Positions 3,158 to 41,826 of a DNA stretch of 64,000 bases are shown piece after piece. The position numbers and the translations under genes are program-made. The stretch's first letter is position 1, and each line of letters opens with the position of its first letter. This DNA comes from Thermoplasmata archaeon. GTDB lineage: Archaea; Thermoplasmatota; Thermoplasmata; Sysuiplasmatales; Sysuiplasmataceae. Where the stretch lies: assembly GCA_021817225.1 (NCBI GenBank), contig JAKAVR010000001.1:72002-136001 (forward strand). The letters run 5' to 3'. The notes under the pieces were generated by a model. It made no database searches, was not told where the DNA came from, and was given only the letters and a program-made list of their open reading frames with translations.

Positions 3158-5982
3158 AGGTATTCGTCTTCGTAAACTTTGTTGACCACATAGTCTATTG
3201 CACGAGCATCGGGATTCGATGGAAAACTGATCGCAAGACCAATCACAGGCTCAGCGTAATGATCCCAACATGAAGCATCCGGGTCGATTGGGTATATTAG
3301 TAAGAGCCCCCTTGTTCTTGGTCTGTGGAGCCGGATGCTGGTCGGGGAGGGTATGTCTGGCTGCTCCTTTGCCACCGGAGCCTTGCCAGCCCCGCCTGCA
3401 GTCGCCTTCCGCCATGCTTCAATCGTGTATTCCAGAGCTGCTCCATATTCCTCCTTTGTCAAGTCTGAAGCTTCATGCTTGGGAGCCACTATTCTTTTCA
3501 AACCAACTTTGTCTTGAAAAATCAAGTCTTGTTCAAGCTTCCTTACAAAGCAGGAGATTGTCAATCCGCCAATAACCGCTTCACGTCCTTTATCACCTGA
3601 TTCGCGGCTAAGAAGTGAGACACACCACTTTGTGAGGTCTCCCTGTTCGACTTGCGACCTAATATATCTTACTAACAATTCAGTCTTTGCCCTTCTTGCA
3701 TCCGGATGCATGACGAAAGCGGACAGAAATCCGATTACGTCGTCCGCTGAGACATCGTCCCATATATGGCCGGGAGAATATGCATAAACGTTGTTGTTAT
3801 CGGCACGAGTCGGTTCTCCGAGGTGGGAGACAAACCGGTCAGTAGTCTGGAAATTGCTCTTTACAACCGATGGGTCTCTGTGAAAAACTAGGGTTTCATT
3901 CATAGTGTTGGAATAAGAAAGCTTCATTCTGGTACCAGAGCGCATCTTATTGATTGAGGTTATCAGAAGGCCACCGGGGTGTTGTCTCACTCTCAGGCCG
4001 AAATCGTTAGGTGTTGCACCGATGCTTTCCATGTGAATGAAGTCACGTCGGAGCTCCTCACTGGCCATAGCGATCCATCTGTACCAGCTGATCAGTTCCG
4101 GCGTTGTGTATATCCTGCAGAGATCGATATAGGTGTCTTTGTAGCCGAACCATCTACCCATCTGCAGCAAGGTGTCATACATACGTGTAGCACGGAGATA
4201 ATAGCTCGTGGTCAGACCTTCCAAAGTCAGACCCCTAGAAAGCTTGTCGCCTCCGATAGCGATGACTGAAACACCCTCGCTAGCATGTCTTCTGTAATCC
4301 AGAATGTCATTTGTGCTGCCGTTTATTGTTCTGATAATTATTTTAGAAGATGCGGTCTCAATTTCAGTCTGAATCTCTTCCCATGTTCTCATCAGTGAAG
4401 GATTCACTTTCGATGTTGTTGGAATGAAATCAGTCTCCCAAAGTTGCTTCAGTTTGTCCGTGATACTGTCCGATGAATCTCCATCTCCGTACCGCACTCT
4501 CCGCTGTATACTTTTCAGCTCCTCCGTGACTAGGTCGTACATCTGATTCTGAACAGACACGTATTTGGAGACGTGAATAAGCATGGAATTGTGCACTCTT
4601 TGTTCACCGCGTGCTGATCTTGCTGCGCAACTGAGTATGAAAGACAATATCGCTTCTTTTAGGGAACCGGGTAACTCCCGTACTGACCATAACTTGTCAT
4701 GACTATCAGGTATCAGAGTTTCGTTATCGATCACAGGGCGAAGTACTGGCATAGATTCTCTCAGTTCAAAGCCTAGTTCGTCGTCTCTGTCTATTCCAAA
4801 TACTTCCAGTGGTCCGATGTAGTTAGAAGGGGTGGGAAGACTTATAATGAAACTCTCAGGGAAAATATCTTCACCAAATCTAGTGTGTGGATTGCTTGGA
4901 TGAATGAATATGCTGGCGAATGGGGTCGCGGTATAGCCAACATATGCGCATTTCTCGAAGGCTTTCAGGAGGTTTCTTATTTCGGCATTGATTTTGGTCA
5001 CATCATAATCGGGGGCATTAAGTTCCAACGGCTTGGTATTTATCGATGCCTGATCGCACTCGTCATCTATAACCAGCAAGGGTACGCCCCGAATTAGTCC
5101 GTCATCTCCAGCAAGAATAGATCTTGCCCAACCGTTCAGGTTTCTAAGGACGGACACGTTCTTTTTTACAACTAGGAGAATGGGATCACCACCTGGCATA
5201 ACACCCACCTGTCTAGCGACTCTCTGATTGAAGTCCCCTTTGTCGTTGCTGCTTGTCAGAGAATGGATTCTCAGGAGACGCTCCCCTGAAAGTCTTCCCA
5301 CACCCATTCTGATATTGCCTTCGTCAAACTTGAGATTCTTGTCAGTATCATATCCCAGAAATTCATCGTCGAGACGGAACTGAGTCTGACTCCTCAGATT
5401 ATTATGGAGACCTGTCAGAACGAATATGAGCTTATATCCAGCATCTACTGCCTTGGAAATGAGGCCAATATAGTTCGAAGTCTTTCCAGATTGAACGCTC
5501 CCCACTACCATTCCACGCCGATCCCATTTCCCTTCACGTTTTGGATCTTCCAGTCTTTTGAGAATAGCTGTAGTCGTACGATCCATTGACCGTAGGACAT
5601 TTGGAGGCCACAACCTGACTTCCTGAAGGAATCGCTCATAGCGTTTCCAGAAATCCCACTTGATCTGAGGGCGATCCTCAGATATCACTGACATAGTGTC
5701 AGACAACCAGTCGATGTGGTCCTCCTTAACATCCAAGACTGAAATCGCACCGACCCATACATTCAGGCTAGTTTCGATGTCGATACAAAGCCTATTCACA
5801 TCACTTTCCTCTGCGTCAACCTCACAAGCCTCGAATGCAGTCTCCACTTTCCTTCGGATGAGATCCCTAGGAGGAGCCTCAACCGTGCTCAAGAGCTGCA
5901 GAGCAACAATTATGGCACGTTGATACTCCTGATCACTTATCATGTCAGTTCCCCAATAACGACTCAAGTTTAGCCAAAACAC
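3154..5982 (-). CDS. Z1 domain P-loop NTPase
   Basis: 942 aa with Walker A 'GSVQSGKTSNYIGL' followed by 'IFVLTGLHNNL'. Conserved partner of HATPase and AIPR in Dcm-linked clusters. Confidence 0.6.
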   Translation of the reverse strand: MFWLNLSRYWGTDMISDQEYQRAIIVALQLLSTVEAPPRDLIRRKVETAFEACEVDAEESDVNRLCIDIETSLNVWVGAISVLDVKEDHIDWLSDTMSVISEDRPQIKWDFWKRYERFLQEVRLWPPNVLRSMDRTTTAILKRLEDPKREGKWDRRGMVVGSVQSGKTSNYIGLISKAVDAGYKLIFVLTGLHNNLRSQTQFRLDDEFLGYDTDKNLKFDEGNIRMGVGRLSGERLLRIHSLTSSNDKGDFNQRVARQVGVMPGGDPILLVVKKNVSVLRNLNGWARSILAGDDGLIRGVPLLVIDDECDQASINTKPLELNAPDYDVTKINAEIRNLLKAFEKCAYVGYTATPFASIFIHPSNPHTRFGEDIFPESFIISLPTPSNYIGPLEVFGIDRDDELGFELRESMPVLRPVIDNETLIPDSHDKLWSVRELPGSLKEAILSFILSCAARSARGEQRVHNSMLIHVSKYVSVQNQMYDLVTEELKSIQRRVRYGDGDSSDSITDKLKQLWETDFIPTTSKVNPSLMRTWEEIQTEIETASSKIIIRTINGSTNDILDYRRHASEGVSVIAIGGDKLSRGLTLEGLTTSYYLRATRMYDTLLQMGRWFGYKDTYIDLCRIYTTPELISWYRWIAMASEELRRDFIHMESIGATPNDFGLRVRQHPGGLLITSINKMRSGTRMKLSYSNTMNETLVFHRDPSVVKSNFQTTDRFVSHLGEPTRADNNNVYAYSPGHIWDDVSADDVIGFLSAFVMHPDARRAKTELLVRYIRSQVEQGDLTKWCVSLLSRESGDKGREAVIGGLTISCFVRKLEQDLIFQDKVGLKRIVAPKHEASDLTKEEYGAALEYTIEAWRKATAGGAGKAPVAKEQPDIPSPTSIRLHRPRTRGLLLIYPIDPDASCWDHYAEPVIGLAISFPSNPDARAIDYVVNKVYEDEYL

Positions 5983-13428: not shown

Positions 13429-14429
13429 ACAAAATGGACACGCCGAATGATCATGCGCAGTTCAGGCAAAAACTCAATGAATTCCGATTGTGGGCTTCAG
13501 GGTGCGGCCGATTCTCATTCTCGACAGTTGCCCGCCAGGTGAGACGCCTTCAATATATATCAAAACATATGGACCTCCTAGAATTCAATCTGTCTGATAT
13601 TTACACCTACATTGAAGCAGAACTCAAGAAAGGAAAGAAGAAGAAGTCTGTAAACAACGACATGAAGGATGTCCAGGCATGGCTCGATTTCCTTGGCAAG
13701 CATATAGACCTTCCACGGTTCAAGGGAGAACCAGCTCCAGAACCCTGGATGCCCACGGATGACCAGCTCTCACAGATAATCCGTTACTGCCGGAAGAATT
13801 CAAACAAGGGCTTGGCAAAACGCAACGAACTGATGTTTGAAATACTTGCATTCGGGGGTCTGCGTATTGGCGAGATGCTTGGGCTGAATATCGAGGATGT
13901 TACTCAAAGAGGCATCTATGTACGTTCAGAGAAAGGTGAACGGGATCGGACCGTAGGCCTTCCGGATGGCCTAATCATCTCCCTCGAGGAATACATTCAT
14001 GCATACCGCTACAACACGGATCCCAAAGCCCTGTTTACAAGCAGTCGCGGGAGAATAGAATACAATTACACAAGGAACCTGATCAAGAGAATTGGCATCG
14101 CGCTGGGTATGCCTCTTCTTCACGCACATGCACTAAGACATTATTGTGCCACAAGCCTGTTGAAAGGCTTCTTTGGCTCTGAACCGCTCGACATCAGGGA
14201 GGTTCAAATCCATCTGGGACATGCCCGCATCGAGACGACAGCAATTTATACTCATATTTCGCAAAAGGAGGTGGCGGAGCATGTGCGACTCCGCTACAAT
14301 TCCTTCTTTCCAGACAGTCACGGGCAAGGAGAAACGGAAATCGTAATTGCAGAAGAGGTGACAGGTTCGTATCCCAGTGAATCCGAACCAGAACTATGTG
14401 CGGCTGCCGGGATTCGAACCCGAGTTTGA
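13425..14429 (+). CDS. int: tyrosine recombinase / integrase
   Basis: 334 aa with catalytic-region motifs 'ARHYCATSLL', 'HLGHARIETTAIYTHIS' (R..HxxR..Y). The last ~31 nt overlap the 3' half of tRNA-Gly. Confidence 0.85.
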   Translation: MNKMDTPNDHAQFRQKLNEFRLWASGCGRFSFSTVARQVRRLQYISKHMDLLEFNLSDIYTYIEAELKKGKKKKSVNNDMKDVQAWLDFLGKHIDLPRFKGEPAPEPWMPTDDQLSQIIRYCRKNSNKGLAKRNELMFEILAFGGLRIGEMLGLNIEDVTQRGIYVRSEKGERDRTVGLPDGLIISLEEYIHAYRYNTDPKALFTSSRGRIEYNYTRNLIKRIGIALGMPLLHAHALRHYCATSLLKGFFGSEPLDIREVQIHLGHARIETTAIYTHISQKEVAEHVRLRYNSFFPDSHGQGETEIVIAEEVTGSYPSESEPELCAAAGIRTRV

Positions 14430-14469
14430 AGCTTGGGAAGCTTCAGTCCTACCACTAGACTACAGCCGC
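14399..14469 (-). tRNA. tRNA-Gly(CCC)
   Basis: The minus-strand read GCGGCTGTAGTCTAGTGGTAGGACTGAAGCTTCCCAAGCTTCAAACTCGGGTTCGAATCCCGGCAGCCGCA folds as a canonical cloverleaf. 7-bp acceptor, D-arm GTCT/GGAC, anticodon loop TTCCCAA, T-loop TTCGAAT. Confidence 0.85.
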
Positions 14470-16184: not shown

Positions 16185-17249
16185 ATGGTCGCGATATTCC
16201 AGAAGAGCGCAGCAGTCATAAACGATGAATCCGAGGCAAGCAGGATACATAACAAGGGCTGTTACGGGGAACCACAGAGCGGCGGCTCACTCAAACTGAA
16301 CCTCCTGGAGACGCTCTATCTCTTCGAAAGTGAAAGACTCAGCGTAGCCGACCAGGAGGGTCAAGTCATGGACTTCGGCCAGCTGCTTACCTATGCTTCG
16401 AGGAGAATCTCGAATTTTGAGGTCCGTTACATTGCATACTGTGACATGAGGAAAAGAGGGCTGATTGTCAATCTTGCCGAGGGCAAGCCGGAGGGCATAG
16501 ATTTCCTTCTTTACGGCCGCGGGGAGACGCCGAAGAATTCATCGCCCAGGGCATTTGTCCTTACGATTTCGGAGCGCTCTCTTTTTGATCTCGACGATCT
16601 CTTTTCAATCTGCGAAGGCGCAGAGGGAACAGGCAAGGATGTAATCCTGTCAGTTGTGGATGAAGAGGGGGATATCACTTACTACAGGATCAAGATAGCC
16701 CAGCCATCAGCAAGGATGCGGGAGAGCTTCGATGCAGTCTTTCAGGGAATAGCTCTCGTCGACAGGGTTGTTGTAAGCGATGCCGAGGCGGCGGACAAGA
16801 TAAGGAAGACAGGGTTCTATGGAAACGCCATGGGTCCCGGTCTGCAGATTTCACTGCTCGAAGCAGTCCATCTGATGATGAAGAAGGCGCTGAAGGTACG
16901 AAGTGCAAAGACCGGGAAAAACGCGACCCTTGGTTCAGTCACTGAGGCGGCAGCAAGGATTGATCCAGAATTTGAACAGAAGCTGGGGGTATACCAGGAC
17001 CTGAAGGATCGCGGTTTTGCGGTCAAGACAGGTTTCAAGTACGGCTCGCATTTCAGGGCATACGATTCCGATCCTGAGAAAGCACACGCCCGCTTCCTTG
17101 TTCATGCTGTGACCAGGGGATTCATGTCCACATGGCCCGAGATATCGAGGGCGGTTAGGGTCGCCCACGGTGTCCGGAAGGAAATACTGTTTGCAAGGGT
17201 GGGAAATTCAGGCGTGCAGTATCTGGAGCTGAGTCGCCATTTGCCCTGA
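16185..17249 (+). CDS. endA: tRNA-splicing endonuclease (two-repeat single polypeptide)
   Basis: 354 aa. N-terminal 'KGCYGE...LETLYLF' and C-terminal 'GFKYGSHFRAYDSDPEKAHARFLVHAV' catalytic region. Confidence 0.8.
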   Translation: MVAIFQKSAAVINDESEASRIHNKGCYGEPQSGGSLKLNLLETLYLFESERLSVADQEGQVMDFGQLLTYASRRISNFEVRYIAYCDMRKRGLIVNLAEGKPEGIDFLLYGRGETPKNSSPRAFVLTISERSLFDLDDLFSICEGAEGTGKDVILSVVDEEGDITYYRIKIAQPSARMRESFDAVFQGIALVDRVVVSDAEAADKIRKTGFYGNAMGPGLQISLLEAVHLMMKKALKVRSAKTGKNATLGSVTEAAARIDPEFEQKLGVYQDLKDRGFAVKTGFKYGSHFRAYDSDPEKAHARFLVHAVTRGFMSTWPEISRAVRVAHGVRKEILFARVGNSGVQYLELSRHLP

Positions 17250-31924: not shown

Positions 31925-32042
31925 CGGGGCCGAGGGGAAATCCGGCTTGCGCTTTCGGACCCCTGACCTTCTGGTTAAAAGCCAGTTGCTCTGTCCAGGG
32001 AGTTCAGCGTGTGAGCCTCCTACCTAGCTGAGCTACGGCCCC
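31925..32042 (-). tRNA. tRNA-Lys(UUU) with two putative non-canonical introns (~28 nt in D-arm, ~15 nt in T-loop)
   Basis: The minus-strand read GGGGCCG-TA-GCTC-AGCTAGGTAG-[GAGGCTCACACGCTGAACTCCCTGGACA]-GAGC-A-ACTGG-CTTTTAA-CCAGA-AGGTC-AGGGG-T..[15-nt insert]..-CCCCT-CGGCCCC-G. Acceptor, D, anticodon and T stems are all complementary, and the anticodon loop has U33/UUU/A37. Total 118 nt, mature ~75 nt. Confidence 0.6.
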
Positions 32043-39515: not shown

Positions 39516-40510
39516 TTGTAGATATCCCTCTTCATGTCGCACTTCCAGATAAGCTGCGCCGACTGTGGCTGTTTCCCCAAAGAGTGCAGGAAAAGCGCTT
39601 CAACTGAAACTTGTCCCAACTGCAGGCTTGCCGTCTGCTGTTGCTGGCCCGTTACCTGAATCATTCCGGTTAACCTTTTGGTGCAAGGCTCATAAGGCCC
39701 TCAACAGGATAGCACACCGCCACACATGGCGGCGGTGCCGAATGGTGTGCCCGGCATGAATGGAGGTCAGAAGGTGAAAGTCCTTTACGGGGTTGCAGCA
39801 GCGACCGTTAGCCGAACGACAAGGGTGTCAGCCGCGAGGCTGAATCCGAAGGAAGTCGCAGGCAAAGTCCCGGCCCGACGAACAGAAACCGTATATGAGG
39901 CGGAGAACAGACAGGGTGAGTTCGCCATCCAGAACAAAACACAATCGCCGCAAGTGTCTGTTTGCGTATATGCGGCGGGTATATGGGATGAAGGCATCCG
40001 TTCTTACCCGGGGAGATCTGGCATCATGCGGCAGCATGTGAAACGGACCGGAGTTTCGTCCGTACAAGCATGTTGCGGTAAACAGTGCAGCAATGCACTG
40101 CCGAGATGCCAGAAGTCAGCAGAAGCCATAGTACATGCGGGAGCATGGAAGGGCAGAAGGTCAGTAATGGAGTGACAACGTTGAGTTCGAGTTCAGGGCA
40201 GAGAAGACAGAAAACCTCGAATGAGGGCCGCCATGCGGGAGGAACGGTGAAACCGCTCGAACTGCATGGGGCGTCCAGTCCTGAGACGGCACGAGACGCA
40301 GTGTCAACCAGAGCAGACAGCATCTGCTTCAAAACTGACTAACCGCTGTATGCCGGACGGTACGTACAGTGGTGTGGGAGGTCGGGAGTTAATCACTCCC
40401 TCCTGCCCGATATATTCGGCCAATAACATCTGTTTTCAACAGACCGACCTGTTACTCTGCATTTCCACTTCCGGGCAATAATATATATCGGCGCAACGAT
40501 CCGAATTGAT

Positions 40511-40990
40511 ATGGTATCGGGCACCCATGTTTCCCCTCGTCCGGAAACCGCAGTGCTTTACTCGACGACCGTTGCCCAACTTGCACTGCTCATCATTCAA
40601 CTCGTTCTGGGATTTTGGCTTGCGTTATTTGCCGTCTTTCCTCCATACCGCCAGACCGCCCCATTTTCCATGTGGTACATGATGAACTCCATGTTCGGAA
40701 TTCCAGCCCTGGCGCTGCACATGTGGCTTGGAATGGTGATAACATTAGTTTCTGTGATGATCCTGATAGTGTCGTTGCTCTCGGGGCGAACCAGCTACAT
40801 TGTGATGAGCGTCGTTGCGATGGCAGCGATCCTCTTTGCAGGGACAGGTGGCATGGGCTTCGTCTGGTCAGGTTTCGGAAATGATGCGTTTTCCTTTATC
40901 ATGGCAATCGGGGCACTGGCAGCAGTTGTTGCATACTCTATACAGTTCGGAAGCATCTCGGCGAGTGCGGGAAAGAAGGCAATACCGTGA
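40511..40990 (+). CDS. hypothetical membrane protein
   Basis: 159 aa with 4-5 TM helices. Confidence 0.4.
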   Translation: MVSGTHVSPRPETAVLYSTTVAQLALLIIQLVLGFWLALFAVFPPYRQTAPFSMWYMMNSMFGIPALALHMWLGMVITLVSVMILIVSLLSGRTSYIVMSVVAMAAILFAGTGGMGFVWSGFGNDAFSFIMAIGALAAVVAYSIQFGSISASAGKKAIP

Positions 40991-41259
40991 TATCCTTCCG
41001 GTTAATCTTCGGAACACAAAAGTTAACTTTTCACTAGTTCCGGCTGGCATTTCCGCCCGTTTTCCTTGCGGCGATCCTGGGAAAAAGTTAATCATTCCGA
41101 AAAAGTGTTAACATGCAGCTGAGGCAGGCGGAGCAGATGTCACACACGAAACTGTGCAGGTGCGGAAGGCCTGTTGACGGCATCGGAGCATGCCCGATGT
41201 GTGCGCGTCCTCCCTCATTCTGCAAATGTGAGCATGTCGGGCCGCCGCCGAGGGGTTGA

Positions 41260-41826
41260 TTGTCGATGGACAGGCTGGCATTGTATTCCCGGAACGCGCT
41301 CAGGCTCAAGGAATATGACAAGCTGCCCCCGCATATCACCAGGGTACAGTATCTCGATATGCTCGATGCAGTTGAAAGGAAACACTCAGCTGCCGGACAA
41401 TGGGCGAAGAAGGCGCGATATTACAGGGACAGGGACAAACTGCTCCTGCGCCTGATGCGGGAGGCTGGAGGCAGGATTGGCGACATACTCAACATCGCAC
41501 CGGTCGATTTCGATTTTGACAGGAAGATTCTCAACCTGAAGGTCAGGAAGAGGAGGGATGTCAACTCGATTCTGCTCGGGGACGGCATTCTCCTTGATGT
41601 GAGCAACTACCTCAGAAATTACAATCCAGGAGCCAAGCTCTGCGATTTCTCGAAGGTTCAAGGGCGGAAGATTGTGAGGCAATACGGCAGGCTGACGGGC
41701 ATCGACGTGCATCCACACATGTTCAGGCATGGTCTGGCAATACACCTGCCCGAGAACAACGTGCCGATACCGATAATCTCAGCGAGACTCGGCCACTCGA
41801 GCGTGTTGACGACGATAAGATACTAA
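41260..41826 (+). CDS. short tyrosine recombinase (catalytic domain only; possibly truncated)
   Basis: 188 aa. 'MFRHGLAIHL ... ARLGHSSVLTTIRY' is the R/H-x-x-R ... Y C-terminal box. Confidence 0.6.
   Translation: MSMDRLALYSRNALRLKEYDKLPPHITRVQYLDMLDAVERKHSAAGQWAKKARYYRDRDKLLLRLMREAGGRIGDILNIAPVDFDFDRKILNLKVRKRRDVNSILLGDGILLDVSNYLRNYNPGAKLCDFSKVQGRKIVRQYGRLTGIDVHPHMFRHGLAIHLPENNVPIPIISARLGHSSVLTTIRY

Follow-up and report, generated by a model that had tools for sequence, protein, structure and literature searches.

A predicted two-intron tRNA-Lys(UUU) gene of Thermoplasmata, interrupted in the D loop and the T loop

The archaeal BHB motif runs in the order h, a 4-bp helix H, a 3-nt bulge and h', returns as h', H, a 3-nt bulge and h, and is cleaved between the second and third bases of each bulge. 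The splicing motif is defined in PMC5829648, and the two positions that concern us here, 20/21 and 59/60, are among the non-canonical intron sites of archaea listed in a review (PMC4090602, summarising Marck & Grosjean 2003 and Sugahara 2008). According to that review, euryarchaea with α4 or α2 enzymes have single introns at 37/38 only. The wild-type α'2 EndA of A. fulgidus "hardly cleaved" a proper D-loop BHB intron unless the Crenarchaea-specific loop (CSL) was grafted onto it (PMC3241643), and it was inefficient at removing the D-loop intron of Methanopyrus kandleri, which is an HBh' intron at 20b/21 in pre-tRNA-Glu(UUC) and is accompanied by a canonical intron (PMC5829648). In ARMAN-2 (Ca. 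Micrarchaeum), pre-tRNA-Cys(GCA) has an intron at 59/60 and pre-tRNA-Pro(GGG) has introns at 53/54 and 59/60 (PMC3239211). The tRNAscan-SE 2.0 survey of 2021 counted six non-canonical introns in three Methanomassiliicoccales genomes, with one gene having two, and one in five Thermoplasmatales genomes, and its table has no euryarchaeal gene with three introns (PMC8450103, Table S7). Our literature searches returned no explicit description of the Thermoplasmata tRNA-Lys gene, only intron counts at the level of clades. Archaea were already known to use both of these positions and this mechanism, cleavage by EndA and then ligation, and the T-loop intron that a preliminary description of this locus called rare is indeed uncommon, but not new, since 59/60 had been catalogued (PMC4090602, PMC3239211).

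We analysed a stretch of DNA of 64,000 nucleotides, referred to here as the window. By reading the sequence and pairing the stems, a tRNA-Lys(UUU) gene was located on the minus strand, split by two inserts (Table 1). With the inserts in brackets, this strand reads GGGGCCG UA GCUC AGCUAGGU[AGGAGGCUCACACGCUGAACUCCCUGGAC]A GAGC A ACUGG CUUUUAA CCAGA AGGUC AGGGG UCCGAA[AGCGCAAGCCGGAUU]U CCCCU CGGCCCC G; CCA is not encoded.

Table 1. Positions in the window of the parts of the tRNA-Lys(UUU) gene and of the other features discussed
Feature	Position	Strand	Remarks
pre-tRNA-Lys(UUU) coding region	31925..32042	-	118 nt, position 1 to discriminator G73
Exon 1	32022..32042	-	acceptor 5' strand, U8 A9, D stem 5' strand, D loop to U20; GGGGCCGUAGCUCAGCUAGGU
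Intron 1 (predicted)	31993..32021	-	29 nt, D loop, Sprinzl 20/21
Exon 2	31954..31992	-	A21, D stem 3' strand, anticodon arm (anticodon UUU at 31979-31977), variable loop AGGUC, T stem 5' strand, T loop positions 54-59 (UCCGAA)
Intron 2 (predicted)	31939..31953	-	15 nt, T loop, Sprinzl 59/60
Exon 3	31925..31938	-	U60, T stem 3' strand, acceptor 3' strand, discriminator G
TATA-box-like element TTTTAATAAA	32065..32074	-	-32 to -23 from mature 5' end
EndA, tRNA splicing endonuclease	16185..17249	+	354 aa, single polypeptide, two units
N-terminal unit of EndA	16185-16721	+	full-size copy of the fold
tRNA-Gly(CCC)	14398-14469	-	intron-less, canonical T loop UUCGAAU
Group II intron domains D1-D4, Rfam match	39828-40154	+	137.7 bits
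Group II intron domains D1-D4, Rfam match	41260-41826	+	63.4 bits

The acceptor, D and T stems are fully paired (7/7, 4/4 and 5/5 bp), as the preliminary description had said of all four stems; the anticodon stem, however, has 4 bp and an A27:A43 mismatch. The anticodon loop CUUUUAA, with U33 and a purine at 37, is canonical as described, and there is likewise no insert at 37/38. Displacement of the 3' strand of the D stem had also been recognized, although its length is 29 nt and not about 28, and the T loop of 22 nt in place of 7 does contain an insert of 15 nt. The TATA-box-like element upstream is probably an archaeal promoter, and TTAATAA was present at the same upstream distance in 10/10 orthologs from the window's clade.

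Folded together with its flanks, each insert gave a BHB-type motif, strict in the T loop and relaxed in the D loop. In intron 2, the T stem AGGGG/CCCCU provides h, UCCG/CGGA (31959-31956 / 31944-31941) provides H, the bulges are AAA (31955-31953) and UUU (31940-31938), and a GCAA tetraloop closes the h' helix GC/GC. The arrangement is of the strict hBHBh' form, having opposed 3-nt bulges, a 4-bp helix between them, and outer and inner helices, and the same structure, (((((((((...((....))))))...))))), is the minimum-energy fold of the T arm both in isolation and within the whole precursor.

Intron 1, whose position could equally be given as 21/22 owing to a repeated A at the junction, has the H helix CUAG/CUGG (32027-32024 / 31998-31995), the 5' bulge GUA (32023-32021) between H and h' as the motif demands, and the h' helix GGAG/CUCC (32020-32017 / 32002-31999). 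At its 3' site the "bulge" ACA (31994-31992) abuts the D stem opposite A14 and G15, and since these two bases stay single-stranded between H and the D stem, what forms is a 2x3 internal loop rather than a bulge. From the fold of the arm, intron 1 falls outside strict hBHBh' and matches the relaxed HBh' class, with an ambiguous register: for the window sequence as free RNA, the minimum-energy fold is 5.6 kcal/mol more stable than the register with strict BHB spacing, and the preferred pairing is a slipped 5-bp register in which G20, not G23, pairs with C44. A strict hBHBh' arrangement of intron 1 was rejected, since an outer helix abutting H is impossible where G15 faces G52. We also rejected the alternative D-loop readings A|...|CCCUGGACAGAGC and AGC|...|CUGGACA, which have no BHB geometry and conflict with the intron-less orthologs, whose D loop is AGCUAGGUA. 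The z-score against shuffles was -2.8 for the fold of the whole precursor, a modest value when taken alone, and -1.3 to -1.4 at the level of the arms. The thermodynamics are weak by themselves, and the case rests on comparative data.

The unspliced locus was not called by ARAGORN, with or without the intron option, and showed no match to RF00005 of Rfam, either at the gathering threshold or at E<=10, since both programs model introns at 37/38 only. When both inserts were removed in silico, ARAGORN called a 76-base tRNA-Lys(ttt), which consists of the 74-nt tRNA and two flanking bases of the construct. This call, together with the stems, bears out the earlier assignment to a minus-strand Lys tRNA with the anticodon UUU. 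Removal of one insert alone, whichever it was, gave no ARAGORN call. In a brute-force deletion series, 1781 of 16,653 distinct variants were called as tRNA-Lys(ttt), several of them with the alternative D-loop junctions; the specific predicted junctions gave a normal cloverleaf.

Across the 64-kb window, ARAGORN and Rfam reported tRNA-Gly(CCC) alone, and a scan for T arms and acceptor stems revealed no further hidden tRNA beyond it. The two Rfam matches to group II intron domains (Table 1) had no domain V/VI match at E<=0.01 and no reverse-transcriptase ORF near them (39828-41826), and were followed downstream by broken ORFs, one of the phage-integrase family (E 6.6e-18). The appearance of this 5-kb stretch, which has no long ORFs, is that of a decayed group II intron fragment beside an integrase remnant.

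PriL is encoded 1.3 kb from the tRNA gene, and we used it to follow the locus in other genomes. An identical PriL was found on DAICMY010000010.1 (MAG GCA_027369515.1) and on three read-assembly contigs, and the identical 118-nt gene was present in all three of these four loci that span the tRNA region. Those PriL homologs that carry names are labelled Thermoplasmata or Methanomassiliicoccales. The closest named relatives are Ca. Sysuiplasmataceae and Ca. Sysuiplasma superficiale, and the window itself stems from a Thermoplasmata MAG that is probably Sysuiplasma-like. The order IlvE-like, tRNA, DUF5654, EF-1β, PriL is kept, and the tRNA-Lys gene is syntenic in genomes whose PriL is 64, 63, 58 and 55% identical; at 45% (L013), the ortholog lies a few kb from PriL in a different gene order. 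On that last contig, the intron mode of ARAGORN reports a candidate tRNA-Ala(tgc) with a 149-nt intron at 37 (3946-4191, plus strand), adjoining the tRNA-Lys gene. In the closest relatives as judged by PriL (L005, L007), synteny is broken on the tRNA side of PriL with no tRNA near it, and the gene lies at another place of that contig (L020). Orthologs in this range of PriL identity (45-64%) have the two inserts at unchanged positions, though these differ in sequence and length, and show compensatory changes in h' (GGAG/CUCC to GGGA/UCCC), in H (U·G to U-A) and in the T stem at 49:65 (A-U to C-G).

The breadth of the interrupted gene was examined by scanning one genome per species with a pattern made of the D-arm insert junctions. 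This pattern matched at least 120 species genomes, and every match listed was a tRNA-Lys(UUU). Nearly all titles among the matches listed name Thermoplasmata, Thermoplasmatota, Methanomassiliicoccales, Ca. Sysuiplasma or the parent phylum, and a few bear a generic or differing label. Among the 126 copies parsed from the matches listed, 88 had the D and T introns, 19 had these and an intron at 37/38, 15 had the D intron alone, and four had the D intron with 37/38. Copies with all three introns (20/21, 37/38 and 59/60) include L017, L023, L034, L036, L037, L041, L050 and L054, as well as L063, L064, L097, L098, L104, L105, L108 and others.

The search pattern did not include the T-loop motif, which therefore provides an independent test. 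All four pairs of its helix H were formed in 66/66 non-redundant orthologs among the matches listed, with position 55 paired as C-G in 8, U·G in 16 and U-A in 42, and in these listed matches the 5' bulge was always AAN and the 3' bulge always NNU. The first four base pairs of the inner helix of the D intron were paired in 89% of cells, against 52-63% for slid registers, and the 37/38 introns were perfect BHB motifs in 18/18 (both among the matches listed). In the longer T-loop introns (about 30 nt) of Methanomassiliicoccales-type orthologs (for example L013, L021 and L022), the inner helix pairs better when slid by one base (69% versus about 56%), and H could gain a fifth pair (A58-U) from an extra U that precedes CGGA/CGAA. 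Because of this one-base slide and the extra U, these orthologs show the strict 4-bp spacing less clearly than the window's clade does.

Within that clade the sequence of exon 1 is identical throughout and exon identity to the window over positions 10-65 is 95-100%, while the introns differ in sequence and range from 17 to 29 nt (D) and from 14 to 15 nt (T); across the orthologs listed the two inserts measure 17-43 nt and 14-38 nt between fixed flanks. A metagenome scan with the predicted intron-less D arm returned at least 120 tRNA-Lys(UUU) genes with exactly GCUCAGCUAGGUAGAGC. Of those listed, 105 were plain 74-nt genes, at most 89% identical to the predicted mature tRNA of the window, and the remainder include genes with the T intron only, with 37/38 only, and with 37/38 and T. 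Orthologs without the D intron read GGU|AGAGC at the junction, and those without the T intron read UUCGAAU. Conserved exons, drifting introns, and presence or absence at exactly the predicted junctions are the signature of real, excised introns. The two-intron reading of the preliminary description has therefore held up, with inserts that are conserved in position and variable in sequence, with compensatory changes, and with exact intron-less junctions. The evidence that decides against chance is this comparative one, namely the occurrence of the same interrupted gene in at least 120 species genomes.

The predicted mature tRNA-Lys is 74 nt long, with the D loop AGCUAGGUA and the T loop UCCGAAU. 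This T loop departs from U54-U55-C56-R57-A58 by one base, the C at 55, and its fold is intact. U55 (Ψ55) is near-universal in tRNAs, so that the predicted tRNA-Lys would be without Ψ55 unless it is edited. All eight non-redundant sequences of the window's clade have C55, whereas 99 of the 107 other orthologs among the matches listed have UUCGAAU. Within this Sysuiplasma-like clade, C55 is found in the window (31956-31959, minus strand) and in L008, L010, L011, L012, L020, L086, L088, L090 and L094. In the precursor, C55 pairs with an intron G in helix H, where other Thermoplasmata have U55 with G or A. The A27:A43 mismatch is common to the closest relatives, is replaced by A-U in L011 and L012, and elsewhere by U·G or U-A. 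The intron-less tRNA-Gly(CCC) with its canonical T loop shows that C55 and the introns are peculiar to tRNA-Lys(UUU) rather than general in the tRNAs of this genome.

An endA gene lies 15 kb from the tRNA gene, and the same two-unit EndA is encoded near the tRNA gene in a Methanomassiliicoccales relative. The N-terminal and catalytic Pfam domains each occur twice in the protein, and in PDB alignments the homodimeric A. fulgidus enzyme covers almost the whole of it, which upholds the preliminary description of a single-polypeptide EndA with two repeats at this distance. The Tyr/His/Lys catalytic context is found in the C-terminal unit only, which is collinear with the α4 enzyme of M. jannaschii and keeps that context. 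The N-terminal unit lacks the deletion of the A. fulgidus enzyme and aligns with M. jannaschii EndA over residues 11-174, with only the His of the triad missing. It also keeps a segment, YGRGETPKNSSPRAF, that resembles part of the third unit of the ARMAN-2 enzyme. Against the α subunit of A. pernix there is a 10-residue gap at "dvekprGADfegp", which is the CSL. On these alignments the enzyme is of α'2-type architecture, a predicted homodimer, and its catalytic unit has no insert of the known broad-specificity kind (CSL/L1). No second EndA-like gene was found within the 64-kb window.

We consider it highly probable, at about nine in ten, that the locus is a functional Thermoplasmata tRNA-Lys(UUU) gene whose two inserts, at 20/21 and 59/60, are introns of the BHB type. 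Such a gene would be transcribed as a 118-nt precursor, in which each intron and its adjacent exon bases would pair into a 4-bp helix with a 3-nt bulge on either side; EndA would cut each bulge between base 2 and base 3, an RtcB-type ligase would join the three exons, and the CCA-adding enzyme would complete the 3' end. Cleavage in the T loop would remove 15 nt (31953-31939), and cleavage in the D loop, in the 4-bp register, 29 nt (32021-31993). Transcription, the cleavage sites (placed in the bulges by the BHB rule), ligation and translational use are what we infer. Against this reading, the D-arm motif is non-strict and its BHB register is disfavoured in free RNA, an EndA of this type is said to cut D-loop introns poorly, and that of the window has no CSL to remedy this; C55 and A27:A43 are unusual for a functional tRNA, yet both appear to be conserved within the clade. 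The same two oddities, and the lack of a call by standard tRNA finders, would be expected of a pseudogene, that is, a former tRNA-Lys that was disabled by two insertions and is no longer expressed or processed. We regard this as very improbable, because the gene keeps its syntenic place and all of its stems in lineages whose PriL is 45-64% identical, occurs in at least 120 species, shows compensatory changes in both stems and BHB helices, and has a conserved TATA-like box upstream, and because 3-nt bulges and a 4-bp helix would not persist in 66/66 sequences (among the matches listed). It is scarcely credible, too, that the inserts are retained, giving a mature tRNA in which the enlarged D arm and T loop are lineage-specific expansion segments. 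Nothing speaks directly for retention, the relaxed D-arm motif being the one feature in its favour. Contacts between the D loop and the T loop (G18/G19 with 55/56) define the tRNA elbow, and retained inserts would destroy them; in addition, the inserts vary freely in length and sequence between fixed flanks, orthologs without an insert have exactly the canonical loop, and the geometry is that of an EndA substrate.

A possible, though doubtful, variant accepts both inserts as introns and supposes that the D-loop intron needs a helper beyond EndA (a chaperone protein, a modification, earlier excision of the T-loop intron, or another endonuclease subunit from a gene elsewhere), or that inefficient splicing limits the supply of tRNA-Lys(UUU). 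The D-arm motif is HBh'-like and slips its register in free RNA, the window EndA is without CSL, the α'2 EndA of A. fulgidus hardly cleaves D-loop introns (PMC3241643, PMC5829648), and the loop-less M. kandleri enzyme is slow in vitro on the HBh' intron at 20b/21 of a tRNA that nevertheless matures in vivo (PMC5829648). However, retention of the D intron throughout the class (at least 120 species) argues for reliable processing in vivo, the A. pernix EndA cuts a D-loop intron without any cofactor (PMC3241643), and the window lacks a second EndA-like gene. What does not fit the textbook picture is a D-loop HBh' intron that appears to be fixed across a class whose predicted EndA has no CSL. Returning to the two-intron gene spliced by EndA, we suggest tentatively that the loop-less two-unit EndA of Thermoplasmata may remove a relaxed D-loop HBh' intron efficiently, and that a tRNA-Lys with C55 would be in use in the Sysuiplasma-like clade. 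If such removal is efficient, an unrecognised determinant of broad substrate specificity exists, for which the full-size, non-deleted N-terminal unit of EndA or help from the folded tRNA body would be candidates, and the rule that α'2 and α4 enzymes cut strict canonical motifs only, with broad specificity requiring the loop, would fail for a whole archaeal class. If C55 is used, this tRNA-Lys would either be without the near-universal Ψ55 or require C-to-U editing.

Since standard tools miss the gene, genomes of the class will seem to be without tRNA-Lys(UUU), the sole dedicated decoder of AAA, and the conserved junction pattern offers a simple route for recovering it. The three introns are present or absent in a mosaic across copies of one orthologous gene, which also provides material for a study of intron gain and loss. 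Moreover, the class presents a natural set of substrates, with a strict BHB motif in the T loop, a relaxed HBh' motif in the D loop and a canonical intron in some members, and because these occur in organisms with an EndA type that is reported to be strict, the proposed co-evolution of EndA architecture and intron type becomes testable with one enzyme and one RNA.

The gene shares with the non-canonical introns of Thermoproteales, Thaumarchaeota and other archaea the 4-bp helix between 3-nt bulges, the listed positions, the occurrence of several introns per gene and the presumed use of EndA and a ligase (PMC4090602). The host is different, being a member of Thermoplasmata (Euryarchaeota sensu lato) with an α'2 EndA, and the introns are fixed in one tRNA across the class, whereas non-canonical introns elsewhere are scattered over many tRNAs. 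The counts in Table S7 of PMC8450103 were made on organisms of this class and on features of this kind; they very likely include orthologs of the window gene, although that table gives counts and not genes, and the 19 three-intron copies found here among the matches listed go beyond it. ARMAN-2 likewise has a T-loop intron at 59/60, and its tRNA-Pro case is also strict hBHBh', whereas its tRNA-Cys intron is of the relaxed hBH form (PMC3239211); its EndA, however, is a three-unit ε2 enzyme with a specificity loop of its own, and that of the window has two units and no loop. The case of M. kandleri is similar in its essentially identical D-loop site, its relaxed HBh' motif, its loop-less EndA and its more than one intron per gene. 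It differs in that its EndA is an (αβ)2 enzyme rather than a fused two-unit polypeptide, in that its second intron is at 37/38 rather than at 59/60, and in that its mature tRNA was confirmed by RNA-seq, while the mature tRNA of the window is predicted.
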